From Gemmatimonadota bacterium (lineage in GTDB: Bacteria; Gemmatimonadota; Gemmatimonadetes; Gemmatimonadales; GWC2-71-9): a stretch of 21,052 nucleotides of DNA. Below, piece after piece: positions 724-20,794 of this stretch. The notes beneath the pieces were generated by a model that was not told where the DNA came from, made no database searches, and saw nothing but the letters and a program-made list of their open reading frames with translations. Both the position numbers and the translations under genes were made by a program. The stretch spans positions 1 to 21,052 of the forward strand of contig JBDHAB010000046.1 in NCBI GenBank assembly GCA_039588295.1. The letters are read 5' to 3'. Position 1 is the stretch's first letter, and each line of letters begins with the position of its first letter.

Positions 724-736
724 CCGAATTCATCCT

Positions 737-2383: not shown

Positions 2384-2398
2384 CAAGAAGGCCCGGAT

Positions 2399-2415: not shown

Positions 2416-2492
2416 GTGATCTGCATCCTACACGGTCGCCCGACCGGGCGAATCCGTAGCAACCAACCAGAAAAGCGCTCGTCACCTCACGG

Positions 2493-2508
2493 CGGTACGC
2501 TCCTTGAC
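2493..2508 (+). promoter_or_regulatory. putative sigma54 (-24/-12) promoter
   Basis: CGGTACGCTCCTTGAC vs consensus TGGCACG-N4-TTGC: correct GG-N10 spacing but GA instead of GC at -12. Lies 50 bp upstream of the ATG at 2559, next to a sigma54 activator gene. Confidence 0.45.
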
Positions 2509-2558
2509 CTGTGGCCGGGCGACTAGGTGGCACCACGCCCAGCCCGGAGGAGGGAGCC

Positions 2559-4466: not shown

Positions 4467-5104
4467 TCAAGTCACGCTGCAGCATCGTCATCGGCCGTTG
4501 GACCGGCGTGCTGCTGTGCTCTGCATTGGCTGCATGTGGTGACGTAGGCTCTTCGATCACCTCGTCGACCCCTACGGCCGCAAAGGTCAAGCCTCCGGCA
4601 CCGCGTCCAAAGGAGGTGACCGTTTACCCAATGGCGATTACGCTCGAGGATGGGACGGGCGATGTGGTTCTCAGCGACGGGGCGGGGGCCTACGTGCACG
4701 GCGAGGGTGCCATTGTCCATTTGGCGGACTTGGAGCCCCAGCACGATCAAATGGCGGTCAAGAGTGGGCCGGGTTCCGACTCGCGTAACGGTCGGATCGC
4801 TCTGGCCGGGCTCGACGAGCTTTGCGGGAACTTTCAGCTGAGAGTGTACTCCACGAGCGAGTTCCTCGACCTGCCGGTGGGTAACTCGATGCTCGGCACT
4901 GGAACGGTGATGTGTCGTCTTCGGGGCGCCGGCAAGAAGGATGTATACCAGATCGAAATCGGCGAATGCATTGCGATCTACCGGATCGCACAAGATGCTT
5001 GGCGTGTGGTGTCCGAAGCAGGGTGCGTTGGTCGACTCGAACGGTTCAAGGAGACGATCGGATACTATGAAGTGCCGTTCGCCTTCGTGGGCGCTCTGAA
5101 CTGA
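4463..5104 (+). CDS. hypothetical lipoprotein
   Basis: ATGA overlap with upstream stop, GGAG RBS, lipobox LAAC followed by a Ser/Thr/Pro linker; no recognisable domain. Confidence 0.7.
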   Translation: MIKSRCSIVIGRWTGVLLCSALAACGDVGSSITSSTPTAAKVKPPAPRPKEVTVYPMAITLEDGTGDVVLSDGAGAYVHGEGAIVHLADLEPQHDQMAVKSGPGSDSRNGRIALAGLDELCGNFQLRVYSTSEFLDLPVGNSMLGTGTVMCRLRGAGKKDVYQIEIGECIAIYRIAQDAWRVVSEAGCVGRLERFKETIGYYEVPFAFVGALN

Positions 5105-5155
5105 AGCTCACCGGCCAAACCGAGACTGTCATTGGCCAAGACTCGCCGAACGACT

Positions 5156-5188
5156 AAGCCCCACAGTACCTAACTTACTGTGGGGCTT
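5156..5188. terminator. 13-bp perfect hairpin, possible bidirectional terminator
   Basis: AAGCCCCACAGTA-cctaact-TACTGTGGGGCTT; lies downstream of the + strand lipoprotein gene and of the minus-strand tRNA fragment. Confidence 0.6.
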
Positions 5189-5404
5189 CCACTTCCGATG
5201 CGCCTGGTGCGATTCGTTGCGTTCGCAGACGCGAGTGGCGGTGCGGGGGAATGGGGGCGTCAACGCGCGACCTCTGGCTCCGGAGGAAAACGGTGACGTC
5301 AGTGGGCGTGCACTGGCGTCAGGTTTTCGGGCGCGTTTCGGGTGTTTGGCGTCAATCGGCGTCCGTGAGTGTCCGTGGGCGTCGTTACAGTGTCTGTTAC
5401 AATC
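5156..5404 (-). repeat. tRNA-Arg(CCG) 3'-fragment-containing att-like repeat, copy 1 (complete architecture)
   Basis: Hairpin 5156-5188. Minus strand 5286-5198 reads CCTCCGGAGCCAGAGGTCGCGCGTT[45 nt]CGAATCGCACCAGGCGCAT. GGCGTC-like units at 10-bp period (5295,5305,5315; 5348,5358,5368,5378). GTTACA at 5384 and 5396. Confidence 0.85.
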
Positions 5405-5523
5405 GGACGAAGACGCGGCATCAAGAGGAGATCGATGCAGACGTAGTGCAGATCCTGCATGCGCGTGGCAAGGATGACGGACGGCCATTAATAACTACAC
5501 CTACTACACAATCCCGACCGCAT

Positions 5524-5552
5524 TTGCCGTGATGCGGGCTGCAGAGTATAGT
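5524..5552 (+). promoter_or_regulatory. sigma70-like promoter
   Basis: TTGCCG-N17-TATAGT, followed by GGGAGG RBS and the DUF362 start. Confidence 0.6.
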
Positions 5553-5580
5553 GGGCCAGTAGCGGGAGGTGGTGCGCGCA

Positions 5581-6534
5581 ATGGAGCGACGTGAGTTCCT
5601 CAGGCGAACCGGTCCGGCTGTGGCAGTGGCGGCCGCGACGGGCGCCACCGGGCTGCTGTTCCATAACCGGCAGACGGCGCGCCGTCGAACCGTCATCTCC
5701 AAGATCACCAGCTTCGAAATCCCCGTCGATCCGACGCTACCCGGGCTGTCACTGGCACGGAATCCCGATCCGGTGCGTGCGCTGAACACGGCGCTGGACG
5801 CCATCGGTGGGATCACCCGCTTCGTCCACGCCGGCGAGCGGGTGACACTCAAGCCGAACGTCGGATGGGATCGCACACCCGCACAGGGGGCGAACACGCA
5901 TCCCGCTCTCGTCGCAGAAATGACGCGGCTGTGTCTCGATGCCGGCGCCATCGAAGTCACGGTGACCGACGTCAGCTGCAACGATCCCCGCCGCTCGTTT
6001 CTGCGATCCGGCGTCCGCGAAGCCGCCGAACGAGCCGGCGCCCGCGTCATTCTCCCGGTGGATTCGGATTACGTGGACGTGCGGCTCGGCGGCGCCCTGC
6101 TCACGACGTGGCCGGTGCTCAAGCACTTCGTCGAGACCGATCGCCTCATCAACATGCCGATCGTCAAGCAGCACTCGTTGTCCCGCTGCACCATCGCCAT
6201 GAAGAACTTCTTCGGCATCCTCGGCGGTCGCCGAAACCAGCTGCATCAGGACATCGATCAGTCCATCGTCGACCTTGCCGCGTTCGTCCGACCCACACTC
6301 ACGGTCGTGGACGCCACGCGCGTGCTCCTGCGAGGCGGCCCGCAGGGTGGATCGCTCGACGACGTGTCGATCGAAGATACGGTCATGTGCGCCACCGACC
6401 AGGTTGCTGCCGACGCCAGAGGAGCCGAGTTCCTCGGTCTCCAGGCACGCCAGGTCGGCCACATCGTGCTGGCGGACCGGTCGGGGTTGGGGACCATGCA
6501 CTACCGAGCCGCCGGATACAGCGAGACTACCTGA
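5581..6534 (+). CDS. DUF362 domain protein with twin-arginine-like signal
   Basis: MERREFL+hydrophobic N-terminus; V-x-LKPN...ANTHP, LINMPIVKQH, IAMKNFFG, LHQ, VVDA, DQVAADA motifs typical of DUF362. Alternative GTG starts at 5569/5572. Confidence 0.85.
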   Translation: MERREFLRRTGPAVAVAAATGATGLLFHNRQTARRRTVISKITSFEIPVDPTLPGLSLARNPDPVRALNTALDAIGGITRFVHAGERVTLKPNVGWDRTPAQGANTHPALVAEMTRLCLDAGAIEVTVTDVSCNDPRRSFLRSGVREAAERAGARVILPVDSDYVDVRLGGALLTTWPVLKHFVETDRLINMPIVKQHSLSRCTIAMKNFFGILGGRRNQLHQDIDQSIVDLAAFVRPTLTVVDATRVLLRGGPQGGSLDDVSIEDTVMCATDQVAADARGAEFLGLQARQVGHIVLADRSGLGTMHYRAAGYSETT

Positions 6535-6550
6535 CCAGCGCCGCTGCCGC

Positions 6551-8215
6551 ATGACCGTCACGACCGTCAGGAATCTGCGCCGCGTCTCACAGGTCGTCTT
6601 CTTCCTCATCTTCGTGTGGCTGGTGCTCAAGACCACGTTCGAGGTCGATTTCAGTCCGGCCGACGTGTCCGAAATCGCGTTGCCGTATCCCGTCTCCATC
6701 GCGCTGCAGTTCGATCCGCTCGCGGCGCTCATGACGCTGCTCGCCAGCGGCACCCTGTACAAAGGACTGCTGTGGTCGCTGGTCATCCTCATCCCGACGA
6801 TCTTTCTGGGTCGGTTCTTCTGCGGCTGGATCTGTCCGCTCGGCAGTCTCAACCACTGGATGTCCGAGTTTCGGTCGGAGCGCAGCGCTCGTCGCGGCAA
6901 GAAGAAGATGGACACCAACCGTTACAGGCCGTACCAGCGGATCAAGTACTACGTGCTCTTCTTCTGCGCGGGTGCCGCCGTCATGGGGAGCCTGCAGGCA
7001 GGACTGCTCGACCCCCTGCCGTTGCTGGCACGATCGATCGGAACGGCGGTGTTGCCCGCGGTCCATGCGCTCTCGCTGTCGGCGGTGACGGCCGCGAACG
7101 ATACGGGCATCGGCCCACTCGCCTGGGTGGCGGCTGCCTTCTACGACGTGCTCAACGCCACACTGCTGAGCTACCGCCCCGCGAACTTCCACGCGATCGT
7201 CGGCATCGCGATCGTCTTTGTGCTCATCCTGCTCCTCAACCGATTCATTACCCGCTTCTGGTGCCGAGCCCTCTGTCCGCTGGGAGCGTTGCTGGGTGTC
7301 TTCTCACGCTTTGCGATCTTCGGTCTGCAAAAGGACGAAGTGTGCTGCACCGAGTGCAATCGGTGTCTGCTCGCCTGCCAAGGAGCCGACAACCCCGACC
7401 TGGGTCGTCGGTGGCGGCAGTCGGAGTGTCACCTGTGCCTCAACTGTCAGGCGGCGTGCCCCGAAGGTTCAATTCGGTTCAGGTTCTTCCCGAGCCGCGA
7501 AGAAACGCAGACCAACCCGGCCGGGACGCCCAAGGTCGATGTGACACGACGCAAGGTGGTCGGCTCGCTGCTCGGTGGGGTGGCCGTGGTGCCGCTCTTT
7601 CGTGCGGGTGATGCCTTCGAGGCCAATCGATCGGCGTTCCTGATCCGGCCACCGGGTTCGATCCCGGAGGAGGACTTCCTCGGTCGCTGCATCCGCTGCG
7701 GGCAGTGCATGCGCGTGTGTCCGAACAATGCGCTGCACCCGACGCTGTTCGAGGGCGGGCTGGAAGGCCTGTGGACACCTATGCTGATCGCCAGGATCGG
7801 CTACTGCGAGCCCACGTGCACGCTGTGCGGCCAGGTGTGTCCGACCGGGGCGATCAGCGAGTTGACACTCACGCGGAAGGTGGGAGACGACGACACGCCT
7901 CCCAACCGGATCGCCACGGCGTTCGTCGATCGCAGTCGCTGCTTGCCGTGGGCGATGGCGATGCCGTGCATCGTCTGCGAAGAATGGTGCCCGACGTCGC
8001 CCAAAGCGATCTACCTCAAAGAGGAGATCGTCTTCGACCGCGAAGGCAATGAGGTGGAGGTTCAGCGACCGCACGTCGATCCGGCGCTGTGCACGGGCTG
8101 CGGCGCGTGTGAGTATGCGTGTCCCGTGCACGACCGCAAGGCCGTCTACATCACGTCGGTCGGCGAGTCCCGCTCGGAGACGAACCAGATCCTGCTCGAG
8201 CGAGATCGCGTGTAG
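6551..8215 (+). CDS. membrane polyferredoxin (NapH/MauN-like membrane domain fused to NapG/MauM-like 4Fe-4S domain)
   Basis: GRFFCGWICPLG and RFWCRALCPLG motifs, multiple TM helices, several CxxCxxCxxxCP clusters, RPPG motif. Confidence 0.9.
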   Translation: MTVTTVRNLRRVSQVVFFLIFVWLVLKTTFEVDFSPADVSEIALPYPVSIALQFDPLAALMTLLASGTLYKGLLWSLVILIPTIFLGRFFCGWICPLGSLNHWMSEFRSERSARRGKKKMDTNRYRPYQRIKYYVLFFCAGAAVMGSLQAGLLDPLPLLARSIGTAVLPAVHALSLSAVTAANDTGIGPLAWVAAAFYDVLNATLLSYRPANFHAIVGIAIVFVLILLLNRFITRFWCRALCPLGALLGVFSRFAIFGLQKDEVCCTECNRCLLACQGADNPDLGRRWRQSECHLCLNCQAACPEGSIRFRFFPSREETQTNPAGTPKVDVTRRKVVGSLLGGVAVVPLFRAGDAFEANRSAFLIRPPGSIPEEDFLGRCIRCGQCMRVCPNNALHPTLFEGGLEGLWTPMLIARIGYCEPTCTLCGQVCPTGAISELTLTRKVGDDDTPPNRIATAFVDRSRCLPWAMAMPCIVCEEWCPTSPKAIYLKEEIVFDREGNEVEVQRPHVDPALCTGCGACEYACPVHDRKAVYITSVGESRSETNQILLERDRV

Positions 8216-8236
8216 GGTGACCGCGCTCGACGTCCG

Positions 8237-9136
8237 TTAGATGAGGGCGTCCTCCTCCCAGCCCAACCGCACCAGATCGATCCGGCTCATGTCGGCGTTG
8301 CCAAGATGGTGCTCGGTGTCCGCCAGGGCGATGTGGTGTGCCGTGGGACGCAGCGGGCGTTCGGCGCCGAACGCCCGCCGTCGCTGTTGTTGAATGATGC
8401 GAAGCCCGACGGCATCGGCGGCGACCGGATCCGTGCTCACGATCAGCCCACGATACGGCCAGACGTAGGCCGAATCGAAGTGATGCGGCCCGATGTTGTG
8501 GTACTGGGGCGTCAGCATTACCAGGATGTTCAGCCGGGTCTTCCCCTTCACGATGGGAAGCTGCCACAGCTTTGCTAGGTCGGCGCACGCATCGGCGTGA
8601 TAGTCCGGCGGGTGATCATAGAACATGATGTAGTTCTTGATGAGACTCCCGACTCCGGACCAGGCATGGGTCCGCATGGGGCGCGAGTTGATCAGAGCCG
8701 TCGTTCGGCGAAAGATGCTCTGCCGCCGCACGTTTCGGTCCCCGATCCCGATCCGGTCGTCGCTCACGCCCGCTGCGTGCAGCCCCTGACGAATGGCGTC
8801 TACAACGTCCGATGGAGTGGGAAGGTAGCGCCACACGTTCGTCTTGATGCCAACGATGTCGTTGGGCTTGATAATCAGCTTCCAACACTCGGAGGGCGTC
8901 TCGAGGCCGAACAACGCCACCATCGCGTCGTTTACCATCCCGTGAACCAACTCGGCGTTGAGCCTACCACCCGACGTCACGACGTCTCGATGGCGGATCA
9001 GCACGACTCTGGACGTGGATTGCGTGGCACGAGCCTCACGGGCAACGGCAGGCAGTCCGACGGCACTCCCCACGGCGGCCACGCCAACACCTTTGATGAA
9101 GTCCCGCCGAGTCAGACCCTCTATGGTCTTGCCCAT
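8237..9136 (-). CDS. DUF362-like protein with Tat signal
   Basis: AAGGAG RBS; TRRDFIK signal with AxA; VGIKTN, LINSRPMRTH, IKNY, STDPVAADAVG motifs. Confidence 0.8.
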   Translation of the reverse strand: MGKTIEGLTRRDFIKGVGVAAVGSAVGLPAVAREARATQSTSRVVLIRHRDVVTSGGRLNAELVHGMVNDAMVALFGLETPSECWKLIIKPNDIVGIKTNVWRYLPTPSDVVDAIRQGLHAAGVSDDRIGIGDRNVRRQSIFRRTTALINSRPMRTHAWSGVGSLIKNYIMFYDHPPDYHADACADLAKLWQLPIVKGKTRLNILVMLTPQYHNIGPHHFDSAYVWPYRGLIVSTDPVAADAVGLRIIQQQRRRAFGAERPLRPTAHHIALADTEHHLGNADMSRIDLVRLGWEEDALI

Positions 9137-9146
9137 GGTCCGCTCC

Positions 9147-10079
9147 TTATGGTGCGAGCTGTGTGAGCCTGTCTGTCGTTGCTTTGCGCAGCGCATCGGC
9201 CGCCTCGCCGCTCACGGCATCCAATACCACTACGACGAAACGGTCGTGCTGGGTAGATGATGCGAACGTCCCGGCTTCGGTTTCCACGGGTTCCGCGTCG
9301 TCGCCCGCCAGCAAATACTGTTGTCGAAACGAGACGAGCGCTCGACTGGCGTCACCCTCGCTCGGGTAGGAGATGACGACCAGGTATGTGGAACCGGGGG
9401 CATAGCGCGCGAGCACCACATCGGTCTCGGGGCCCAAATTGAGCACGTTCTCGCGCGTCAAGTAGTAGTGGTAGTTCAGTGACTGGTGGAGGTGAAAGAA
9501 CCGATCACTGAACGCGACGAGACCGTCCGAAGGCAGCAGGTGGACGATGGGAGGACGAGTCACCCCAGTTGGGAGGTTCTGTGAGATCGCCCGCGCGATT
9601 TCCTCCAACGCCGTTTCCGGGTCGGCAGAGCCCTGCTCCGCCGCGACGCACACATAGAAGCGATCCTGCCAGAAGCAGAACACTCGGCCCTTGCGCTCAA
9701 AGCCACCGCCGATACCGGCTTCCTCCTGCTCCCTCGCGTAGCTGAACACGCCGTAGGCATCCTCGGTGGTGCCCATGTCGAAGAGCTCGACGGTGATGTG
9801 GGGACTCCCGGAGCGGGCGTAGCGCGCCACCACGACGTCCCTGAAGGCGTACGATCGGTAGACCTCGCCGGCGCCGTCGATGTAGTCGAAGATCGTCTCG
9901 CGATCGTAGGTCTCCGAAGAGTTCTGTCGGATCCAGTCGCTGATTCGATCGGGAAGAAGCATGGCATTCGCTGCGCTATCCGCTTCCGAATCCCCACATC
10001 CTGACAGCGTGGCGCCAAGCAAGAGGCCCAACGCGCCCAGCGTCGCGACCGACGTGTTTGTGAAGAGGGAGCATCGCAT
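9147..10079 (-). CDS. DUF6599-like lipoprotein
   Basis: Lipobox LSGC; YDRETIFDYIDGAGEVY...VELFDMG..AYGVFS motif, shared with paralog at 11722. Start uncertain (ORF extends to 10157). Confidence 0.75.
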   Translation of the reverse strand: MRCSLFTNTSVATLGALGLLLGATLSGCGDSEADSAANAMLLPDRISDWIRQNSSETYDRETIFDYIDGAGEVYRSYAFRDVVVARYARSGSPHITVELFDMGTTEDAYGVFSYAREQEEAGIGGGFERKGRVFCFWQDRFYVCVAAEQGSADPETALEEIARAISQNLPTGVTRPPIVHLLPSDGLVAFSDRFFHLHQSLNYHYYLTRENVLNLGPETDVVLARYAPGSTYLVVISYPSEGDASRALVSFRQQYLLAGDDAEPVETEAGTFASSTQHDRFVVVVLDAVSGEAADALRKATTDRLTQLAP

Positions 10080-10290
10080 GTAGGTCGGTTCAGGAAGCAT
10101 GGCCATCGGCCGTTGAGGTTGTCGGCGAAGGTAGTGCTCGCGAGCGGAGCGGGTCAATCAGGTGGTGCTGACGGTGGTCACCACCAGACATCTGGACAAT
10201 TCCGGTCCACATTCAGCATCTTGATCAAGTGGGAACCTTCGACGCCCGCCGCGCGGCGGGTCCCCAGGTCCAGCGGATGGGAGGGGTGTG

Positions 10291-11688
10291 ATGACGAGGG
10301 ACGCCGAGCCGAATCGCGACCACGGCAGCATCTCCCGCAGGAACTTCCTCAGTGCTGGAAGCGTAGCGCTGGCCGGTGGCGCCATGGTGGGAGCGGGAGC
10401 CACGCCCGCCGCGGGCAGTGTTACGCGTGGCATGTTCCCCAGGCCGCCCCGCGCCGGCGACCGCATCCAGCGCTACCGCACCCTCGGCCGGACCGGGTGG
10501 CAGGTCTCCGATCTCGCTGTGGGGACCAGCAGGCTCAGGGAATCGTCGATCGTCCGGTACGCGTTCGACAAGGGGATGAACTACATCGACACGGCGGAGG
10601 GGTACGGCAACGGCCGAACCGAAAGCATCATCGGCGAGGCCCTCCAGCAGATCGACCGGTCGAAGATGTTCGTCAATACGAAGCTCCGCGTGGGGTCAAG
10701 CGATACCGAGTCGACGATACTGAATCGGGCTCGCGCGAGTCTCGGGCGCCTGCGAACCGACTATCTGGACGCCTTCGGCATGCATCGTCCGCCGACCGTC
10801 GAGTCACTCAATCACGAGGGATTCCACGCCGCGGTGGCCCGGCTCAAGGCCGAGGGTCGGGTACGCTTCACGTGCCTGTCGAATCACGGCCCCCAGGGTC
10901 CCGAGGGGGACAGCATGGCCGACGTGCTGACCGCGGCGGCGGCCGATGGCCGGTTCGACGTCATGCTCCTGGTCTATAACTTCCTCAATCACGACGAAGC
11001 GGACCGAATTCTCGCGGCGTGCAAAGCCAACAGGGTGGGAACCACTGGCATGAAGACCGGCCCTGGCGTCCTCCGTGCCGATCCGGTCGATTCGGACAAC
11101 CTCACGGAAGCGCAGGAGCAGTACGTCGAGCGCATGACGCGCCGAGGGTCGACTCGCGAGCAGGCAATCCAGCGGCTCCAGTCGATGGCGCGACGGCGGC
11201 AGGAGCTATACGATCGGACGCGCCCTTTCGTCGAGCGGTTCGGGATCCAGACCGAAGAGCAACTCCGGCTCGGCAGCGTCCACTGGGCGACCCAGAACCC
11301 CGACATGCACTCGGCGTGTGTGAGCATGCCCAATTTCGAGACGGTGGACAAGGTGGTCGCGCTCTCCGGTACCGAACTGACGCCGATTGAGGAGGACATG
11401 TTGGAAGCGTGCGCGTCGGCGCTGAGCGATCAATACTGCCGCCACGGATGCAACGCCTGTGTCGACAACTGCCCCGACAGCGTCCCGGTGAGCACCATCA
11501 TGCGATACGCCTACTACTACGAAGGACAGGGACGCGAGAAAGATGCGATGGAGCGCTATGCGCATCTGGCCGGCGCGAATGGATCCGCGTGTGCTCACTG
11601 CTCGGCACCTTGCGCCGGCGCTTGCCCCTTCGGCGTTGACGTGCAACCTCAGATGCTGCAGGCGCACGCCCTGCTGACGCTGGCCTAG
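10291..11688 (+). CDS. aldo/keto reductase with Tat signal and C-terminal 4Fe-4S dicluster domain
   Basis: SRRNFL signal; YRTLGRTGWQVS, NYIDTAEGYG, NTK, SLGRLRTDYLD..GMH; C-terminal CRHGCNACVDNCP and CAHCSAPCAGACP. Confidence 0.9.
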   Translation: MTRDAEPNRDHGSISRRNFLSAGSVALAGGAMVGAGATPAAGSVTRGMFPRPPRAGDRIQRYRTLGRTGWQVSDLAVGTSRLRESSIVRYAFDKGMNYIDTAEGYGNGRTESIIGEALQQIDRSKMFVNTKLRVGSSDTESTILNRARASLGRLRTDYLDAFGMHRPPTVESLNHEGFHAAVARLKAEGRVRFTCLSNHGPQGPEGDSMADVLTAAAADGRFDVMLLVYNFLNHDEADRILAACKANRVGTTGMKTGPGVLRADPVDSDNLTEAQEQYVERMTRRGSTREQAIQRLQSMARRRQELYDRTRPFVERFGIQTEEQLRLGSVHWATQNPDMHSACVSMPNFETVDKVVALSGTELTPIEEDMLEACASALSDQYCRHGCNACVDNCPDSVPVSTIMRYAYYYEGQGREKDAMERYAHLAGANGSACAHCSAPCAGACPFGVDVQPQMLQAHALLTLA

Positions 11689-11721
11689 ACGGTGGTCGAG
11701 GGTGAAGGGAATGAGGAGATC

Positions 11722-12588
11722 ATGAGCACACCCCGATCGGCCGGCCCGAGGCTCGTCACTGTCGTTGCCTTCCTCACTGCCGTCACCGCGCTGCTAGCCT
11801 GCTCGGGCGAGCGGCCGGCGTTTCCGTCCGTGGAGGGCTGGACGCGGACTAGTGAGGTACGGGAGTACGCTGCGGACAACTTGTGGCAATACATCAACGG
11901 CGCGGCCGAACTCTTCGTCGAGTACGATGTGCAGACCTGCCAGACCGCGGACCTCACCTCGGAAGGCTTGGTGGTGACGGTCGATCTCTACGACATGGGC
12001 ACACCGTTGAATGCGTTCGGTGTATTCAGCCGAGAACGTGCGGGAACGAGGGTAGCTCTACCGGGTGCGACCGAGGCAGCGATCTCCCCTCCGTACCTGG
12101 CGTTGCTGCTGAAGGGCAGCACGTACGTCAAAGTGAACGCGCTGGAGGGTGAGCTGACTGACGCCAGCGCACGTGCACTGCTCGGGGGAATCGCGCGGTC
12201 GCTGCCCGGAGCGCCGGCCTATCCTGCTGAGATCGATCTGCTGCCTGAGGACGGTAGGATCGCCGGTACCGAGGGATTCCAACGCGAAGGGTTCCTGGGT
12301 CTCTCAGAACTTCGTGACTGCCTGTTCGCCCAGTATGCCGACGAGGGGGGAGAGCCTTGGCAGGGATTCGCGGCCCTCCCGCCGGAGGGATCGTCAGTCG
12401 AGTCAGTCTGGAGAGCATTGGCAGACGAGTGGGAAGCTCTGGATCACGGAGAACAAACGGTGCTCTACTGGGAGATCCCGTACCAGGGACTGGTCGGGGT
12501 AGTGAGGGCCGGGGAGACGATGTTGGGAGTCTCCGGTGCCTCGGACCAAGCGGAGTTGCTAGAGCGGCTGGACGGGTTCGTGCGCTGA
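11722..12588 (+). CDS. DUF6599-like lipoprotein
   Basis: GAGGAG RBS; lipobox LLAC; NLWQYINGAAELF...VDLYDMGTPLNAFGVFSRER motif. Confidence 0.75.
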   Translation: MSTPRSAGPRLVTVVAFLTAVTALLACSGERPAFPSVEGWTRTSEVREYAADNLWQYINGAAELFVEYDVQTCQTADLTSEGLVVTVDLYDMGTPLNAFGVFSRERAGTRVALPGATEAAISPPYLALLLKGSTYVKVNALEGELTDASARALLGGIARSLPGAPAYPAEIDLLPEDGRIAGTEGFQREGFLGLSELRDCLFAQYADEGGEPWQGFAALPPEGSSVESVWRALADEWEALDHGEQTVLYWEIPYQGLVGVVRAGETMLGVSGASDQAELLERLDGFVR

Positions 12589-12615
12589 GCGTCGGAGCTC
12601 CTGACCACCAACGAG

Positions 12616-12862
12616 AAACCCCACAACCACTGAATAGCTGTGGGGTTTTCACTTACCATGCGCCTGCCGCGATTCGTTGCGTTAGCAGACCGCGGGGTGT
12701 GGTGGGGACGTAATGGGGAGGTCAACGCGGGACCTTTGGCTCCGGAGGCAAACCGCGGACGCTCATAGGCGATCATAGGCGTTCATTTGCGCCGTTTTCC
12801 TGCCCTTTGACGACCATGAGCGATCACTAGCGATCATAGATGTTGTGACAGTTTCTGTTACG
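12616..12862 (-). repeat. tRNA-Arg(CCG) 3'-fragment-containing att-like repeat, copy 2
   Basis: Hairpin AAACCCCACA..TGTGGGGTTT 12616-12648. Minus strand reads GCCTCCGGAGCCAAAGGTCCCGCGTT[47 nt]CGAATCGCGGCAGGCGCAT. RGCGATCATA-like decamers at 12758,12768,12778 and 12809-12844. GTGACA-N6-GTTACG at 12845-12862. Confidence 0.85.
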
Positions 12863-12882
12863 GTCCAGGTGCAACGCCGCGG

Positions 12883-12904
12883 CAGCTTCAGGCGGGGGTT
12901 AGGC
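12883..12904. other. attC-like half site (degenerate)
   Basis: GTTAGGC (GTTRRRY) at 12898-12904; on the minus strand GCCTAAC contains the stop codon of the 12899-13186 ORF, followed by CCCCGC-CTGAAGCTG. No complete attC hairpin found. Confidence 0.35.
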
Positions 12905-13186
12905 GGCTCCCCCTCCGGACGGCGAGGAGCCAGCTAGATCCGTCTGCTCCGGCCGTGCTATCTCTGCCAACTCGACTCCTGTACGGATCCGATCACCGAA
13001 TGCGAGATACGCTGCCTCAAGTGCCACGGTGTTCACCGGTCGGCCGAGCCGCTGTTCGCTGACACAAGCGGCGACTATCATGTCCGGAGATACTTTCCGG
13101 AAGCGCATGGCCAAGAGCTGCGTGAAGCCGAGGCGAACGCCGCAGGTGCGAGCCCGAATCCAAGGCTTCATCATATCAAAGAGCAA
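12899..13186 (-). CDS. short FloA/YqfA (flotillin-like)-related protein, possibly a fragment
   Basis: PWIRARTCGVRLGFTQLLAMRFRKVSPDMIV...LEAAYLA resembles the FloA N-terminal conserved block (W..A...GV......L.GMR.R......IV...LE.HYLA), recognised from memory; lacks the TM anchor and C-terminal part. Confidence 0.55.
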   Translation of the reverse strand: MLFDMMKPWIRARTCGVRLGFTQLLAMRFRKVSPDMIVAACVSEQRLGRPVNTVALEAAYLAFGDRIRTGVELAEIARPEQTDLAGSSPSGGGAA

Positions 13187-13468
13187 CCCGATTTGCCCGA
13201 GCTAACCTTCCGCTTGTCTCCGGCCGATGCGAAGTTAAGGGTAGCAGCCTGGGTGGTGGAATGGGCAGACGCAAGGGACTCAACACGCAAGCTCGGAAGC
13301 AGCACGGGAAGCTGGCCCATCATCAGCATGTCCAATATCGCTGGACCCGTTCACCAGATGCCGCCTACACGGTATGATGCGGTGCGAGACGGGGGATTCA
13401 CGCGGCGCACTTGGCCGCAAATACGAAGAGCGGGCAACTCCAATGTCGATGTTGGTGGCTTGGTTCTG

Positions 13469-14116
13469 ATGGGCTTGGTCTCGGGATGCCAGCAGAAACC
13501 TGCCACCGGCAGTCCTGCGGCACTATCCGAGATGGAGACGAGCGGTCAGTGGGCAGTAGAGGCGGATTACGTCGACGCGTGCAGCTGCAAACCCGCTTGT
13601 CCCTGCTTGTATGGTTCGCCACCCACCGAACACAACTGCCAGGGAGCGACCCTGGTTGACATCAAACAGGGGCATTTCGAGAACGTCACTCTGGATGGCG
13701 TGCGTGTCGTCGCCGTGTACAGCGGTGGTGAGTGGATCAAGTTCTATGTGGGCGACAATGCGAGCGCCGCCCAGACCGACGCGGTGGTGAAACTGCTACC
13801 GTCCTTCGAGGAGGTCTTTGCCATCAGCAATGTGATCGAGGTCAAGCGTGTACCTGTTTCACTGACACGGCAAGGTGACCGGGTTCGTTTCTCCGTGCCG
13901 AACACCACCGTTGACATCGAACTGATGCGGGGAGCTGGTGGCCTACCGATCAAGACTGAGGGGCTGCCACATTGGGACTCTGGAAAGGCGCCTCCTTACC
14001 TGGGGCATACCCAGTACCGGATGGTGGAGCTCAAGCATCAGGGTGGCGAGCAGCATTTCAGCTATTCGGGTACAAATGGCTACACCGCCCGTATCGACGA
14101 TGCCGATCGAATGTGA
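13469..14116 (+). CDS. DUF1326 domain (Cys-rich, putative metal-binding) protein, probable lipoprotein; start uncertain
   Basis: W...ADYVDACSCKPACPCLYGSPPTEHNCQG...I.QGHFENVTLDG motif; LVSGC lipobox. The ORF is open from 13193 but its first ~70 codons look non-coding. Confidence 0.75.
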   Translation: MGLVSGCQQKPATGSPAALSEMETSGQWAVEADYVDACSCKPACPCLYGSPPTEHNCQGATLVDIKQGHFENVTLDGVRVVAVYSGGEWIKFYVGDNASAAQTDAVVKLLPSFEEVFAISNVIEVKRVPVSLTRQGDRVRFSVPNTTVDIELMRGAGGLPIKTEGLPHWDSGKAPPYLGHTQYRMVELKHQGGEQHFSYSGTNGYTARIDDADRM

Positions 14117-14307
14117 CATTTGATCCGTGCCTCGTGCTCTGCTTCGGTGCGGGTGCGCCGGATGAGCGGTGGGAAGTGTGGCGCTGCGTGACGTGTGGAT
14201 TTGTGGCGGTGTTTGGATGCGCGGCAGCGTGTTAGGCACCACCAGACTCCGCCGAGTTCAGGCGTGGGCTGCGCGACGTGGGGCGAGGGGCGCTCGAGGG
14301 GCGTAGC

Positions 14308-16434
14308 ATGAAGAACGCATATGACGAGAACCAGGCGCGGGAGCTCGTTCGGCGCTACTCCGACCTTCCGGAGGAGCTGGCCCTGCGCATCTTCACCTCG
14401 CGGCTGCTCGGAAGTGAGACGAGTCTGGTGCTGCACGGGGGCGGGAATACGTCGGTGAAGGTGCGGACGACGAACCTGCTAGGGGACGAGCAGGACGTTC
14501 TCTTCATCAAGGGGAGCGGAGCGGATCTCGCGACGATCGAGCCCGCGGACTTCGCGGGCCTCGACCTGGCCTATTTTCGGCGCTTCCGAGCCCTCGAGGC
14601 GCTCTCCGAAGAGGAGATGGAGATCCAGCTCGAGACCCACCGGCTTCGCACCGACTCGCCTTCGCCCTCGGTCGAGACGCTGCTCCACGCCTTCCTTCCG
14701 CACCGCTACGTCGACCACACGCACGCAGACGCCATCTTGATCCTGACCAACCAGGAGGATGCCGACGAGCTGCTCGAGGCGGCACTGGGTCCGAGGGTGG
14801 CCGTGCTGCCCTACGTCATGCCCGGCCTTCCGCTCGCTCGGCAGGTCATCGAGTGCTACGAGCAGGACCCCGAGCTCGAGGCCATCGTCAGCCGGAGCCA
14901 CGGCATCTTCACCTTCGCGGAAGATGCCAGGACCTCCTACTCGCGCATGATCGAGTACGTGAGCCGCGCGGAATCGTTCATCGAGGAGCGGACACAGCGT
15001 GCGGTCTCGCCCGCTCGCTCCGAGCCAGTCGGGGCGACCGGGTCGGTCGGGTCGGTCGAATTCTCGAGCACGGCCGCGCGGTCGATCCAGGCGCTTCGCG
15101 GCGCCTGCGCCCATCGCGACCCGGAGGGGAGGCTGCACCGCTTCGTGGCCGAGCTCCGGACGACTCCCGACATCGTGGAGCTCTCCCGCTCCGGGCTGCT
15201 CGCCCGCGAGCTGTGCCGCTCGGGTGTCCTCACACCCGATCACGTCATATGGACGAAGAACCAGATGCTCTTCGTCGAGCGGGTTCCGGAGGCGGACGAG
15301 GACCTCGTGGAGTACGTCGGCGAGCTGATCACCGCCTACCGCGAGGACTACGACCGCTACTTCGACGAGCAGCGGAAGGCCAAGAGCGTCGATCGGCGTA
15401 AACTCGACCCCTTTCCGCGCGTGATTCTCGTGGCGGGGGTGGGGCTCGTAGCGCTCGGCGCGACACGCGCGGCGGCGCGGGTCGCCGCGGATATCGCCGT
15501 GCCGACGCTTCGCGCCAAGCGCCTCGCTCACGATCTTGGGAGCTACGTTCCAATCGACGACTCGCACATCTTTGATATGGAGTACTGGAGCCTCCAGCAG
15601 AAGAAGCTCGGCACGCAGGTGGCGCCTCCACTCACGGGACAAGTGGCCTTCGTGACTGGGGCGGGCGGCGCCATCGGCGTCGGCATCGCCGATCGTCTGC
15701 TCGCGGCGGGAGCTCTCGTCGCGATCTCGGACATCGATGAGGACCGCCTGCGCAGGGCCCATGAGCACCTCGCCGAGAGAAGTGAGGCGAGCCGCATCGA
15801 GAGCATCGTCTGCGACGTGACGAGCCCGGGCTCGGTCGAGAGGGCCTTCGAGGAGGTGAGCTGCCGGGCCGGCGGCATCGACATCGTGGTTCCGAACGCG
15901 GGCGTCGCCCACGTCGCGACGCTCGAGGCGCTCACGCCCGAGAAGTTCAGCCAGGTCGTCGGGGTGAACCTGATGGGGACCTTCAACACCATCAAAGCCG
16001 CGATTCCCATCCTGAGGCGCCAGGCGACGGGCGGGAACATCGTGCTGATCAGCAGCAAGAACGTCCCCGACCCGGGAGCCGCTTTCGGGGCGTACAGCGC
16101 CTCCAAGGCCGCCGCACACCAGATTTCGAAGATCGCCGCGCTCGAGCTCGCGGAGCTCGGCGTCCGGGTCAACATGGTGAATCCCGACGCCGTCTTCGGG
16201 GACGAAAATATCTCTTCCGGCCTGTGGGACCTGATCGGGCCGGACCGGATGAAATCGCGCGGACTCGATCCCGAAGGGCTCCGCGACTACTACCGCCAGA
16301 GGAACCTTCTCAAGGTCTCGGTTCAGGCGGAGCACGTGGGCAACGCCGTGGTCTTCTTCGCGAGCGAGCAGACTCCGACCACGGGGGCGAGCCTTCCCGT
16401 GGACGGGGGCGTACCCTCGGCGTTTCCGAGGTAG
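14308..16434 (+). CDS. bifunctional class II aldolase / short-chain dehydrogenase (rhamnulose-1-P aldolase/SDR-like)
   Basis: SRLLG..LVLHGGGNTSVK, KGSG.DL, PSVETLLH, VDHTHAD, HGIFTF (aldolase II); EYWSLQQKKL linker; TGAGGAIG, PNAG, YSASK (SDR). Confidence 0.92.
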   Translation: MKNAYDENQARELVRRYSDLPEELALRIFTSRLLGSETSLVLHGGGNTSVKVRTTNLLGDEQDVLFIKGSGADLATIEPADFAGLDLAYFRRFRALEALSEEEMEIQLETHRLRTDSPSPSVETLLHAFLPHRYVDHTHADAILILTNQEDADELLEAALGPRVAVLPYVMPGLPLARQVIECYEQDPELEAIVSRSHGIFTFAEDARTSYSRMIEYVSRAESFIEERTQRAVSPARSEPVGATGSVGSVEFSSTAARSIQALRGACAHRDPEGRLHRFVAELRTTPDIVELSRSGLLARELCRSGVLTPDHVIWTKNQMLFVERVPEADEDLVEYVGELITAYREDYDRYFDEQRKAKSVDRRKLDPFPRVILVAGVGLVALGATRAAARVAADIAVPTLRAKRLAHDLGSYVPIDDSHIFDMEYWSLQQKKLGTQVAPPLTGQVAFVTGAGGAIGVGIADRLLAAGALVAISDIDEDRLRRAHEHLAERSEASRIESIVCDVTSPGSVERAFEEVSCRAGGIDIVVPNAGVAHVATLEALTPEKFSQVVGVNLMGTFNTIKAAIPILRRQATGGNIVLISSKNVPDPGAAFGAYSASKAAAHQISKIAALELAELGVRVNMVNPDAVFGDENISSGLWDLIGPDRMKSRGLDPEGLRDYYRQRNLLKVSVQAEHVGNAVVFFASEQTPTTGASLPVDGGVPSAFPR

Positions 16435-16455
16435 CGACGGGAGGGCGGCGGAGTC

Positions 16456-16854
16456 ATGCGTCTGATTCACGCGGGGTTGGTCAGCAGCTCGGAAGACAAG
16501 GCCGATCGCTTTTTCGCCGGCGTGCTCGGCCTCGAGAAGACGCGGAGGAGCGCACTCTCGGCGGAGCTGGCGGATCGCCTTTTCGGCATCGACGCGGGCT
16601 GCAAGATCGTGTACTACGGATGCGGGGACCTTGAGCTCGAGGTCTTCCTGATCGATCAGACCGGTCCGCCCGAGATCGCCGGGAGCAGAATCAGCCATCT
16701 CTGCTTGGAGGTGGCGAGTCGGTCCGAGCTTCTCGCGAGGTGTGCGGCGGCGGGCGTCGCGATGCGCGACGCTCCGAAGGGCGACTCTCTCGTCGTCTTC
16801 ATCGAGGATGAGGACGGCAATCTCTACGAGATCAAGGAAAGGAGAGCCTCGTGA
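16456..16854 (+). CDS. VOC/glyoxalase family protein
   Basis: H-x-GL...[39 protein letters not shown] overlap with the next gene. Confidence 0.85.
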
Positions 16855-17732
16855 TGGCGGATCTCGATTCGGTCAAGCAGAGCAAGCAATTCCATGCCGA
16901 CGTTCCCCAGAAGACCGAGGGCTTCTTTCTGAAGGGATCGAACGCGTACGACTGGGGCATGAAGAACCGGCTGGCGCGCATCTTCAATCCGGAGTCGGGA
17001 AACACCGTGATGCTGGCCTTCGACCACGGCTACTTCCAGGGGCCGACCACGGGGCTCGAACGCGTGGACCTGAGCATCAATCCCCTGATCCCGTATGCGG
17101 ATACGCTGATGGTCACGCGCGGCATCCTCCGCAGCATCATTCCGCCCGCGACGGGCAAGGCGATCGTACTGCGGGCCTCGGGTGGCCCCAGCATCCTGAA
17201 GGAGCTCTCCAACGAGGAGATCGCGGTCGACATCGAGGACTCGATCCGCCTGAACGTCTGCGCCATGGCCGTGCAGGTCTTCATCGGCGGTGAGTACGAG
17301 AAGCAGTCGATCGTCAACATGACCCGGCTCGTCGACATGGGAAACCGCTACGGCATTCCAACGTTGGCGGTGACCGCGGTCGGCAAGGACATGGCCCGCG
17401 ACGCCAAGTACTTCCGACTCGCAACCCGCATCTGCGCCGAGCTCGGCGCCCACTACCTCAAGACCTACTACATCGAGGAGGGCTTCGAGACCGTCACCTC
17501 CTGCTGCCCCGTGCCGATCGTGATCGCGGGCGGCAAGAAGATCCCCGAGCTCGACGCCCTGAAGATGGCCTACAACGCCATCCAGCAGGGCGCCAACGGG
17601 GTGGACATGGGCCGAAACATCTTCCAGTCCGAATCGCCGACGGCCATGATCCAGGCGGTTCGCGCCGTCGTTCACGAAAACGAGACGCCCGAGAGGGCCT
17701 TCGACCTCTACAACACGTTGAAGAGCCGATAG
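16854..17732 (+). CDS. lsrF: 3-hydroxy-5-phosphonooxypentane-2,4-dione thiolase LsrF (class I aldolase fold)
   Basis: [74 protein letters not shown] match LsrF. Confidence 0.92.
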
Positions 17733-17876
17733 CCGGCAGACGACAGACGCCGAACCTACTAATCGGGCTCCTCGCTGTTCCCCTGGGTCGTTTCGGAAGT
17801 CGCGAATACGAGATGTCCGGCGGCGTCCTAGGCGCGGATTCGTTCCATCACGTCTGCCGCCCCGCGGCACTCACGC

Positions 17877-17905
17877 GCTGTGGGGTTTTGATTTGCCATG
17901 CGCCT
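17877..17905 (-). repeat. truncated copy 3 of the att-like repeat
   Basis: GCTGTGGGGTTTTGATTTGCCATGCGCCT aligns with copy 2 GCTGTGGGGTTTTCACTTACCATGCGCCT; similarity ends within the tRNA acceptor-stem strand. Confidence 0.7.
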
Positions 17906-18076
17906 CTCACGGACGCCGTCGCTCAACAGCCACTACTGCAGCCCGGCCAGCGCGTAAGGGTGACGGTACCAAGTCTCGATCTGGACAAGGATGGGGAGAG
18001 TTTCTCCCAACTGCGCGGAGACACGCTCGTGCTGAAATCGATGCGGTGCCCCGTCGCCGACGTTGAACGCCTCGAC
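17900..18076 (+). pseudogene. internal fragment of a small secreted hypothetical protein
   Basis: APLTDAVAQQPLLQPGQRVRVT...LRGDTLVL...CPVADVERLD looks like a signal-peptide end plus a beta-rich domain; no own start; ends at the NAD kinase fragment junction. Confidence 0.45.
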
Positions 18077-18258
18077 GAGATCATTAGTTGGATGGGCGCC
18101 GATTCCTCACCCAGCTGCTCGACGGCCTCGGCCCATAGCAGCTCGAGGTCCGGCTCCGCAACGAGTGTATGACCGTTGCGCGGGGCGTATCGGGCTAGCT
18201 GCGCGAGCACGCCCCGTAGCTCGCTGTAGCGTTGATTCCCGACGACACCAATTCTCAT
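18076..18258 (-). pseudogene. NAD kinase N-terminal fragment (truncated)
   Basis: MRIGVVGN...IQLMIS starts with an ATGA overlap on the dxs stop, a position where NAD kinase commonly occurs; it breaks exactly where the (L)GGDGT motif is expected. Confidence 0.6.
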
Positions 18259-20147
18259 CGTGCGGAAGGAGTTACCTCGGCAACGAGAGCGTGTACACGG
18301 GTCACCAGCGCATCGGCGGACAGCCCCGCTTCGACTAGCTGATCCGTTCGCTTCGCATGTTCGAAGGTGCGATCGGGGGCACCCAGCGTCTCCACGCGCA
18401 CCTCCGGCGCCATCGACTTGATCGTCGACGCCATGTACGCACCGAACCCGTTCACCCCCGTGCCGTCCTCGATCGTAAGCAGCAGACGGTGCTCCGAGAC
18501 GAGCGAGTCCAGCATTCTTCGGTCGTACGGCTTCAAGAACCGGCAGTTCACCACCGCGACTTCGACGCCGTCTGCCGCCAGTCGCTCCGCCGCCTCAAGG
18601 GCCGGCTGACACATGACACCGACAGCGAGGATTGCCGCGTCCCGGCCGTCACGCAGTCGTTCCCACGATCCATACCGAACCGCCTCGACCTGCTCGACGG
18701 GAACCATCGACCCGGGAGCGGTATCGCGCGGATAGCGGATCGCAAACGGTCCGTCGTGCTGCAACGCGCACCGCAGCAGTCCCACCAACTCCGGCGCGTC
18801 GTTCGGCGCGGTCACAGTCATGTTCGGAACCGCCAGCATATAGGGGATATCGTACAGCCCCATGTGAGTCTGCCCGTCCGCTCCCACCATGCCCGCGCGA
18901 TCCATGCAGAACGTCACCGGCAGTCCCTGGATCGCGATGTCGTGGATGATCATGTCGAAGGCGCGCTGGAGGAACGTCGAGTAGATCGCGACGACGGGAC
19001 GCAGGCCCTGTGTCGCCAGCCCCGCGGCGAACGTCGTGGCGTGTCCTTCAGCAATCCCGACGTCGAAGAACCGATCGGGCCAGCGTTTCTGGAAGATGTC
19101 GGTGCCCGTTCCCGACGGCATGGCTGCCGTGATCACAACGAGCGCGGGGTTCTCTTCGCCGAGCTCGGCGATCGCGGTGCCGAACACCTTGGTCCACGTG
19201 GGCTGCGTGCTCTGCGAGGGACGGAGCACGCCCGTTTTCGGATCGTACGGATTGCGTGCGTGGAACTTCTCCGGATGCGGCTCCTTGAACGGGAAACCTT
19301 TGCCCTTCTCCGTCACGACGTGCACCACTCGTGGCCCGTCGAGCGTCTTCACCAAGTCGAACGTGCGAAGCATCGCGTCGATATTGTGGCCGTCGATGGG
19401 GCCGAAGTACCTGAAGCCCAGCTCCTCAAACAGCATGCCGGGAGACCACAAGTTCTTGACGCTCTCTTCCACGGTCTTGGCGAAGTCGACAATCCGGTTC
19501 CCGCCCACCAAGTGCGACGCCCGTTCGATCAGATTCTTGACATGCTCGCGCATCCGGTTCGTGAACGGACTCGCGATGACGGACCCGAGGTACTTGTTGA
19601 TGGCTCCAACGTTGGGCGCGATCGACATCCCGTTGTCGTTCAAGACCATGATGATGTCGCGTCCTGAGTGACCAGCGTTGTTCATCGCCTCGTACGACAG
19701 CCCGCAGGTCATCGCCCCGTCGCCCACCACCGCCACCACGTGGAAGTCCTCGCCGAGGAGATCGCGGGCCGTTGCCATCCCGAAGGCCGCGGACATTGCG
19801 GTGCCCGCGTGCCCCGCACCGAACACGTCATGCTCGCTCTCGGTCCGGCGCAGAAAACCCGACAATCCATCCTTCTGACGCAGCGAGGGCAAACGTCCGT
19901 CGCGCCCGGTCAGCACCTTCCAGGGATACCCCTGGTGCCCAACGTCCCACACGATCTTGTCGACAGGAGATTCGAACGCGTGGGCAAGCGCCACCGTCAG
20001 CTCCACTACGCCCAGTCCGGCCCCAATGTGCCCTCCGGTCTGCGACACGACGTCGATCAGGCGCTGTCGTACCTCCTCGGCGAGAGCAGGTAACTGCTCC
20101 CGGTCGAGCGCATGAACTTCCGCTGGGGACTTAATGGATTCGAGCAT
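18255..20147 (-). CDS. dxs: 1-deoxy-D-xylulose-5-phosphate synthase
   Basis: GGHIGAGLGVVELT, WDVGHQ, TPP motif GDGAMT...LNDN, FEELG..Y.GPIDGH, DVGIAEGHA, IYSTFLQRA, DRAG.VGADG.TH; 630 aa full length. Confidence 0.97.
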   Translation of the reverse strand: MLESIKSPAEVHALDREQLPALAEEVRQRLIDVVSQTGGHIGAGLGVVELTVALAHAFESPVDKIVWDVGHQGYPWKVLTGRDGRLPSLRQKDGLSGFLRRTESEHDVFGAGHAGTAMSAAFGMATARDLLGEDFHVVAVVGDGAMTCGLSYEAMNNAGHSGRDIIMVLNDNGMSIAPNVGAINKYLGSVIASPFTNRMREHVKNLIERASHLVGGNRIVDFAKTVEESVKNLWSPGMLFEELGFRYFGPIDGHNIDAMLRTFDLVKTLDGPRVVHVVTEKGKGFPFKEPHPEKFHARNPYDPKTGVLRPSQSTQPTWTKVFGTAIAELGEENPALVVITAAMPSGTGTDIFQKRWPDRFFDVGIAEGHATTFAAGLATQGLRPVVAIYSTFLQRAFDMIIHDIAIQGLPVTFCMDRAGMVGADGQTHMGLYDIPYMLAVPNMTVTAPNDAPELVGLLRCALQHDGPFAIRYPRDTAPGSMVPVEQVEAVRYGSWERLRDGRDAAILAVGVMCQPALEAAERLAADGVEVAVVNCRFLKPYDRRMLDSLVSEHRLLLTIEDGTGVNGFGAYMASTIKSMAPEVRVETLGAPDRTFEHAKRTDQLVEAGLSADALVTRVHALVAEVTPSAR

Positions 20148-20258
20148 AGACGGTTGTTGGTGTCCAGTTGTCCGTCATCAGTACACTCTTTCCGGAGTTC
20201 GGCTCACTTGGTGCAAGCCTTGGAGCCGAGCGACCGAAAACTGACAACTGATAGCTGA

Positions 20259-20462
20259 TTACCTCCGTCTCTCCACAATGAACTTCGCCAATCCTTCCGG
20301 GACCCTGCAATCTAGCCCATGCTGCCGGAGGAGGGCCACGGCCCGGTCGATGTACTCGATCGCCGTGGCCTGAGCGCGATCGATGCCTAGCAGAGTCGCA
20401 AAAGTCGGCTCATGGTGAGCGGCGTCCTTCCCGGCTGTCTTGCCCAGCTCATTCGACGTGCC
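20259..20462 (-). pseudogene. ispA: C-terminal fragment of geranyltranstransferase / FPP synthase (IspA-like)
   Basis: GTSNELGKTAGKDAAHHEPTFATLLG...LAKFIVERRR directly upstream of dxs; the preceding FQI.DD.LD motif and whole N-terminal part are missing. Confidence 0.8.
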
Positions 20463-20629
20463 TATGCCTGTCCGCTTCAGTACTCTGCTGTGCAACGGTG
20501 TGCAGCAGTTGTAGCGGCATCTCCCGCTGTGATGCTTCCAGCTCTCCATTCTCAGAGTACTCCCAGAGACGAAGCTCTATCGACCGGTGGCGCTCGCATC
20601 GCGTGGTCTCGTCGAGCCGGGGATAACGT

Positions 20630-20794
20630 GCTGTGGGGTTTTCACTTGAAATGCGCCTGGCGCGATTCGTTGCGTTAGCGGTCGCGAGTGGTGGGGTCGG
20701 GTAATGGGGGCGTCCACGCGCGACCTTTGGCTCCGGAGGCTAAGAGTGGCGTCCATGCGCGTCAGTGGACGTCGTTACAATGTCCGTTACAATC
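20630..20794 (-). repeat. tRNA-Arg(CCG) 3'-fragment-containing att-like repeat, copy 4 (internally shortened)
   Basis: Minus strand reads GCCTCCGGAGCCAAAGGTCGCGCGTG[45 nt]CGAATCGCGCCAGGCGCAT; only three decamer units (20748,20758,20768); GTTACA at 20774 and 20786; left hairpin arm absent. Confidence 0.85.

Follow-up and report, generated by a model that had tools for sequence, protein, structure and literature searches.

T-loop inserts in tandem tRNA-Arg(CCG) 3′ halves of a Gemmatimonadota contig: a candidate non-autonomous element within an att-type array

Cis-mobilizable elements (CIMEs), as portrayed in the part of the source used here, are tandem decayed elements that lost their integration genes and kept their attachment (att) sites, with repeated integration at one tRNA gene (PMC5704250). 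At ssrA of Dehalococcoides, in the sections drawn on, many islands lie in tandem and are marked by direct repeats of the tDNA end; 15 of them are devoid of an integration module and the cargo is metabolic (PMC3146451). Islander, in the portion cited, describes a regenerated tRNA gene with a displaced 3′ fragment that can be damaged, includes an anticodon (A) class of att sites, and reports tandems of at least three members as rare, with 4 in 2168 genomes when members are counted only if they have an integrase of their own (PMC4383910). GTAG/CGTC repetitive extragenic palindromes (REPs) are introduced by their source, in the passages used, as short non-coding hairpin elements, some families of which insert inside specific target palindromes (PMC3733652). 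Here we analyze a stretch of 21,052 nucleotides (the window), which is the entire contig C46 of genome G000 of a Gemmatimonadota bacterium (4.5 Mb, 160 contigs, 64% GC). It carries four copies of a repeat containing a tRNA-Arg(CCG) 3′ half, and in all three full copies an insert of 45-47 nt lies between the T-stem 5′ strand and C56. Taken alone, the att array is a known, ordinary pattern; the T-loop insert, or plug, is the unusual part and is apparently undescribed. No description of T-loop plugs in att fragments was found in full-text literature, subscription papers and supplements (including the Islander island tables) being outside the scope of that search. The copies and their parts are as follows.

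5156-5404, minus strand: copy A, with arm pair, 10-bp units, tRNA-Arg(CCG) 3′ half with T-loop insert, and terminator-like hairpin
5384-5401, minus strand: arm-type direct-repeat pair of copy A, TGTAAC-N6-TGTAAC, a putative integrase-binding motif
5199-5285, minus strand: tRNA-Arg(CCG) 3′ half of copy A, anticodon loop to A73, two mismatches to the resident gene, split by the insert
5217-5261, minus strand: T-loop insert of copy A, family 1, 45 nt
5158-5186, minus strand: terminator-like hairpin of copy A
12616-12862, minus strand: copy B, whose T-stem allele is that of the live gene of relative G002 and not the resident allele
12677-12723, minus strand: T-loop insert of copy B, 47 nt, one difference from an insert of G420 that lies in the other T-stem allele
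17868-17905, minus strand: copy D, a remnant reduced to the tRNA 3′ tip plus the first arm of the hairpin
about 20620-20794, minus strand: copy C, with a shortened arm region; next to the insert its tRNA half matches the resident gene without a difference (18+17 nt)
20670-20714, minus strand: T-loop insert of copy C, family 1, 45 nt

All four copies were found at the places and in the common orientation given in a preliminary description of this DNA. A profile built from six copies scored A, B and C, all three among its seeds, at E 1e-44 to 1e-74, and copy D, which was no seed, at E 0.005. Read on the minus strand, the repeat runs through the arm pair, the 10-bp-period units, the segment from the anticodon loop to T54, the insert, and C56 to A73. 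Identity to tRNA-Arg(CCG) begins at C31/C32, the last anticodon-stem base, and ends at A73 once the insert is skipped. The 3′ half described earlier thus stands in its extent, but its T arm is split by 45, 47 and 45 nt in copies A, B and C. Likewise, the TGTAAC-N6-TGTAAC pair is present in copies A and C (20774-20791), but copy B has the variant CGTAAC-N6-TGTCAC (12845-12862), and both arms of the terminator-like hairpin occur in copies A and B, but the first arm only in C and D. A motif resembling the arm type of copy A also lies between tRNA and integrase on contigs C54 and C7 and in G007. ARAGORN returned no tRNA call in the window, and Rfam gave two weak window matches, none at the repeats, and none at the inserts in the window or at seven further loci. 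Identity from the anticodon loop to the 3′ end is the mark of an A-class att array; together with the arm motifs and the co-orientation it upholds the reading of the repeats as att-type displaced tRNA-Arg(CCG) 3′ halves.

Misassembly is unlikely at the borders of copy A and at copy D, because contigs of sequencing run X1 match across the outer borders of A (4906-5171, one difference; 5353-5619, none) and across D (17598-17996, none); X1 is possibly related to the source sample, which limits the independence of this check. The two runs that hold most of the tested stretch are marine sediment metagenomes from one study.

No recombinase was detected in the window, in agreement with the preliminary description: there was none among 18 Pfam-scanned open reading frames (ORFs; those below 70 aa were left out), and none of the 13 PF00589 matches of the genome falls there. 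By the same scans, no integration or transfer genes lie between the att sites of the window. G000 has one tRNA-Arg(CCG), which is intact (C54, c6214-6287), and a hairpin, TGTAAC-like motifs and a tyrosine integrase with aligned catalytic R, K, R, H and Y lie 3′ of it; the genome also has tRNA-Arg(UCG). A 114-bp exact overlap joins C46 to C88 and adds a fifth copy, and all five share one orientation. C34 joins C11, with five more tRNA halves or part-halves, again all in the same orientation. In the relatives G024, G491 and G420 an intact tRNA-Arg(CCG) is followed 2-11 kb downstream by co-oriented halves; no integrase match was found in the stretches searched of the G491 and G420 loci. In G024, but not in G491, a block of 6.7 kb separates the live gene from the first half; the next 4.5 kb align at 92%. 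A tandem array of tRNA-Arg(CCG) halves is supported by its continuation into C88 and by the same layout in the three relatives, but its blocks were not confirmed as att-bounded units (see below). Accretion of A-class tyrosine-integrase islands at tRNA-Arg(CCG) is, in our judgment, very likely.

To characterize the plug, we used a profile that returned 47 distinct matches, 32 of which could be parsed with both junctions. The parsed inserts are 44-47 nt long, with G or T as the left base and A, T or C, sometimes with an extra base, on the right. The insertion point is GTT^CR (T54/T55/C56, with one-base ambiguity; ^ marks the junction), any target duplication is at most one T, and terminal complementarity is at most 5-6 bp. 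The inserts have a 5-bp stem around a C-rich loop whose cytosines are nearly fixed, with G-tracts on the opposite strand, and several variable columns are without A. In family 1, CGTC precedes a terminal mini-hairpin, the closing pair of which covaries, being T-A or C-G in 30 of the 32; this score was reached in 0 of 20000 shuffles, a test inflated by the non-independence of related inserts. Adenine mutagenesis of the loop, as by a diversity-generating retroelement, was considered and found no support. By-eye comparison with the family rules showed that the junctions fit neither the integron G^TT, nor the IS110 core duplication, nor the 7-bp duplication of the T-loop class, nor group II intron ends. 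Many halves break exactly at or inside the insert (G000 C34 at 17322, 26991 and 29099; C4 at 3692; L015, L038 and L097), suggesting that it is a deletion or recombination hot spot.

The plug is nearly confined to tRNA halves. When the annotated tRNAs of G000 were used as queries, the C14 tRNA array left out, 14 fragments spanned the T-loop, and the insert was present in eight (six Arg-CCG, one Ile-GAT, one CAT-type) and absent from six; Arg-CCG fragments carried it in 6 of 7 cases. The profile adds plugged Pro-like and Trp-like halves on C43 and C62, and its eight full matches in G000 are all in T-loops. The exact right-end pattern, which includes a T-loop-like tail, occurs at 14 genome loci, 12 of them in tRNA halves and 12 in Gemmatimonadota. 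A pattern free of tRNA context found 16 metagenome loci with 17 distinct sites, all 17 in tRNA T-loops (one at a contig edge, one decayed). Family 1 was detected in halves of Arg-CCG, Pro, Trp, CAT-type, Cys, Ile-GAT, Phe and also Arg-UCU; the strict pattern hit 3 of 401 genomes of the phylum (6, 5 and 1 copies; control matches, 0), and looser insert searches added G001, G004, G005 and G420. Family 2 (34-38 nt) has the same outline (GA-start, stem, mini-hairpin) at the same T-loop position, and was found in Arg-CCG, Asn and Phe halves of four of the 401 genomes after one chance match was dropped. A 75-nt insert on C73 of G000 shares its right part with family 2, and further insert types occur in L063/L065 and L066. 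At L063 (49-92), L065, L066 and L185 (G401 C89 5060-5105) we noted a second type stacked behind the first in Cys halves, and inserts at GGTT^CA in the tRNA-Pro anticodon arm. Chance or unexamined rows (L042, L044, G070, G440 and G361) were dropped from all counts.

In none of 45 sites tested did the insert lie in a convincing whole tRNA gene. When the insert was taken out in silico, ARAGORN under relaxed settings made five calls, all rejected: four had an isotype unlike that of the fragment, and in the fifth (Trp) the D arm is replaced by a palindrome. In viral contigs two patterns gave no match, and the third gave two chance matches in coding sequence.

Several comparisons bear on when the plug arrived and whether it moves. 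The 3′ half and tail of the live G491 gene correspond to the first displaced half of G024, which has a 34-nt family 2 insert, an orthologous empty and filled pair. L072 holds two head-to-tail insert copies that differ at two positions. Family 1 inserts in different tRNA types differ by as few as 2 changes (Cys/Trp, Cys/Pro), family 2 inserts in Arg, Asn and Phe by as few as 1, and, as listed above, the copy B insert recurs with one change in G420 beside the other T-stem allele. Plugs are already present in halves that differ from the resident gene by 0-1 mismatches.

These data suggest, at a probability of roughly two in three, a two-layer history, in which (i) A-class islands accreted at tRNA-Arg(CCG); and (ii) a separate non-autonomous element was inserted after displacement. 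The anticodon loop of tRNA-Arg(CCG) would be the crossover site of tyrosine-integrase islands; with every island a fresh 3′ half would arrive and the previous one be displaced, and later loss of the integrases would leave tandem displaced halves with decayed cargo between them. The silent halves would then be hit at GTT^CR by the 45-nt element, presumably moved by a trans-acting enzyme; hits in live tRNA genes would be purged, which would leave the element visible only in halves. The second layer taken by itself, a separate element hitting displaced halves, is probable. For the enzyme, a single-strand HUH/REP-like transposase from a visiting element is a tentative guess, made because the plug is small, ends in a conserved hairpin and shows no duplication, properties typical of such families.

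A number of observations weigh against this two-layer history. One insert lies at GGTT^CA in a tRNA-Pro anticodon arm (L146) and one outside any recognizable tRNA (L048), so that the target is a short sequence and not the T-loop fold, which leaves the confinement to tRNA halves unaccounted for. The variable terminal bases are not what a precise transposase would give. The sole orthologous empty and filled pair belongs to family 2 and to another genus, and most inserts have their nearest neighbor in the same tRNA type, so that inheritance along with att sites may explain much of the spread. No long form was found in genome contigs with the exact right-end pattern, and a one-mismatch family 2 search of five genomes gave only T-loop copies and unrelated matches, with no parent. 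A hunt for five enzyme families in G000 alone gave no candidate (GIY-YIG and IS91-type matches were only listed); by eye and motif scan, no insert-like ends were seen at its reverse transcriptase (group II intron, C111), two IS110 and one Y1 transposase. As to the first layer, the preliminary description had predicted an intact tRNA-Arg(CCG) and a tyrosine integrase to the right of the window; both exist, on C54, but contig-end overlaps link none of C54, C34 and C65 to the window, and C54 joins neither C34 nor C11. The C54 integrase has ACG at its start position where four full-length homologues have ATG or GTG, and Q/N where most have K/H, and the paralogous integrase at tRNA-Ala on C7 is interrupted by a stop codon. 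A working helper integrase is therefore unsupported, and with it the earlier proposal that the cargo blocks are mobilized in trans.

The neighbor pattern is also what would be seen if the plug were carried in the att site of the island itself (attP). An island would bring the arm, the anticodon-to-T-stem segment and the insert, with crossover on the right-hand side of the insert or confined to halves already displaced; a rare origin would be followed by spread through att lineages and gene conversion, with no mobile element today. Identical inserts in several halves of one data set (L068/L071; the Cys copies of L069) fit such carriage, as does the likeness of the 5′ end of the family 1 insert (5253-5261) to the 10-bp arm unit (GACGCC..) of Arg-type att sites (5290-5383), whether this reflects chance or origin. 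We regard it as improbable nonetheless: chimeric T-stems, with the left strand of one allele and the right of the other, were not found among the Arg-CCG rows compared, a C65 half shares the arm family of copy B (91%) but is without the insert, and near-identical inserts occur in unrelated tRNA types, once as a tandem double. An RNA route has still less to recommend it. A tRNA cut at GUU^C would be ligated to a small RNA, and the reverse transcript would recombine with homologous halves; alternatively, a mini-intron spliced at the DNA or RNA level would be tolerated in live genes. It would account for inserts confined to tRNA sequence with imprecise junction bases, for nearly invariant loop cytosines amid variable neighbors, as in error-prone copying, and for the two target positions (55, and 38/39 of tRNA-Pro), which are canonical pseudouridine sites. 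But the insert was never seen in a whole tRNA gene, its length falls short of what group I or II self-splicing needs, selection acting on the G-rich strand accounts equally well for the variable columns without A, and the only reverse transcriptase of G000 is that of an ordinary group II intron.

The order of events might also be reversed, the plug first killing a live tRNA and an island at the anticodon loop then rescuing the cell with a fresh 3′ half, so that acquisition is selected as repair. The gene-less scars of 50-60 bp in G368 would suit this order, as would the plugged halves that still lie within 0-1 mismatches of the resident gene; such an order requires survival without single-copy tRNAs such as Cys, Trp and Phe, a plugged whole gene was not seen, and 6 of the 14 halves of G000 are unplugged, which together make it highly improbable. 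Least likely of all is that the whole 250-bp repeat is a dispersed element of the MITE (miniature inverted-repeat transposable element) or REP type unrelated to site-specific integration. Copies are spread over at least six contigs of the fragmented assembly and the window has no integrase, as a dispersed repeat would allow, but the copies are strictly co-oriented and clustered on joined contigs, arrays lie directly 3′ of a live gene in G024, G491 and G420, and terminal inverted repeats of the 250-bp repeat were not found among the 25 longest inverted pairs.

Under the two-layer history the standard att model has a consequence for island stability: if an island were excised by recombination of the live gene with a plugged half, the tRNA gene left behind would have a broken T-loop, so that plugs would tend to fix islands in place and clean removal could become impossible. 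The tRNA-Arg(UCG) of G000 may read CGG by wobble, which would weaken the lock at this locus and counts against the proposal. The strong form, in which an enzyme inserts mobile plugs of 34-75 nt at GTT^CR in tRNA sequence and a ratchet makes islands permanent so that arrays only grow, is doubtful. A mobile plug would rank among the smallest mobile elements, with a target in nearly every tRNA gene, and its enzyme would represent a new site-specific insertion activity. If the ratchet holds, the plug would be a minimal mobile element of a new kind and a new means of fixing horizontally acquired DNA; it would offer a concrete, testable route to island irreversibility.

Some further observations concern other tRNA loci of these genomes. 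An Ala-Gly-Met-Val-Arg-Pro-Arg cluster, whole in G420, is split in G000 (C4 3627-4990 and C54 6214-7111); the 5′ halves of tRNA-Arg(ACG) and tRNA-Pro remain on C4, and on C54 two small genes resembling a toxin-antitoxin pair lie between a tRNA-Arg(CCG) 5′ half and the live gene. Gene-less mini-scars, consisting of a live tRNA, 50-70 bp with a hairpin and a duplicated 3′ part, were seen at L024 (G002 C63), L103 and L108 (G368); those of G368 are plugged and that of G002 is unplugged. On C14 (47647-63751), 19 tRNA genes with many doubled isotypes, divergent from the main set, form an array that is likely phage- or island-borne.

The repeats of the window separate three blocks of genes.

5581-12588, strand not assigned: redox cargo block, with DUF362, a 4Fe-4S protein, DUF362, DUF6599, an aldo-keto reductase and DUF6599
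12899-17732, strand not assigned: second cargo block, with a FloA fragment, DUF1326, an aldolase/short-chain dehydrogenase, a VOC protein and an LsrF-type thiolase
17923-20549, minus strand: dxs block, a second, foreign dxs with the C-terminal part of ispA on one side and, on the other, the N-terminal part of the neighboring gene, presumably NAD-kinase-like

For this genus, the view that such blocks are gained or lost as att-bounded units gained no support. Parts of the redox block recur at 83% identity in G004 and G007, and there the att profile found no repeat in the fetched loci (up to 1.5 kb of flank), and no clean module-skipping joint was found in four low-depth contig sets; a 47-nt skip joint in X1 probably derives from the live tRNA or the C65 half and was not used as evidence of excision. 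The dxs block has 76% nucleotide identity to the native operon on C22 and a broken gene at each end, and the FloA fragment adjoins copy B. On these grounds the blocks look like decayed captures more than tidy cassettes, and their movement as units is only possible; gain of a unit between tRNA gene and half was seen only in the G491 and G024 comparison. Within the second block, a tRNA-Leu(UAA) 5′ half (13247-13283, plus strand) that ends at the anticodon loop and is 92% identical to the C74 gene is a second kind of att relic within the array. Short motifs with a GTTAGGC end (12874-12907 and 14218-14240; one weak genome match) resemble integron attC ends. A repeat of ~80 nt (14137-14228) has 19 further matches on 14 contigs, often near islands, and other copies appear to encode part of a small CPxCG zinc-ribbon-like peptide. 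To the left of copy A (109-4466) lie genes for a sigma-54 regulator, a sensor kinase and a TolB-like propeller, with a paralogous trio on C77 (42-58% identical).

Among short elements, the plug resembles REPs in being a short non-coding hairpin and, in family 1, in the CGTC before the mini-hairpin, but REPs, in the part of the source used, have 8-9-bp stems and high genome-wide copy number, whereas the plug has a 3-5-bp stem and about ten copies nearly confined to tRNA halves, with no adjacent REP-associated tyrosine transposase (RAYT) (PMC3733652). We did not assign it to REPs or REPINs: its stems are short, CGTC is internal, and the eight full profile matches all lie in T-loops. Nor is it a DDE-type MITE, as it is without terminal inverted repeats of 15-30 bp and duplicates at most one T, or a group I or II tRNA intron, as none of the 45 sites is a whole gene and Rfam gave no intron match in the window or at the seven loci. 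IS200/IS605 palindrome-associated (PATE) or IS91-type elements have a fixed tetranucleotide target at the element edge and a parent with matching ends; for the plug, the GTT^CR cut falls inside the tetramer, terminal bases vary, and the searches above found no parent. The array itself shares with CIMEs, so far as the cited part describes them, decayed tandem elements at one tRNA gene; it differs in that its halves are interrupted by an insert; conjugation genes, functional att sites and cis-mobilization are features of the published elements (PMC5704250). With the Dehalococcoides ssrA islands it shares tandem islands marked by tDNA-end repeats and a missing integration module; there, in the sections drawn on, the system involves tmRNA, a 20-bp repeat, T-loop crossover and a serine recombinase, versus an anticodon-loop-length half, a tyrosine integrase and a plugged T-loop here (PMC3146451). 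The fragment damage of Islander, in the portion cited, is a small deletion 3 bp upstream of the discriminator, in contrast to the conserved T-loop insertion here (PMC4383910). A plugged half would be split into two short BLAST matches, and island finders that need an uninterrupted tRNA fragment may miss or mis-call plugged arrays.

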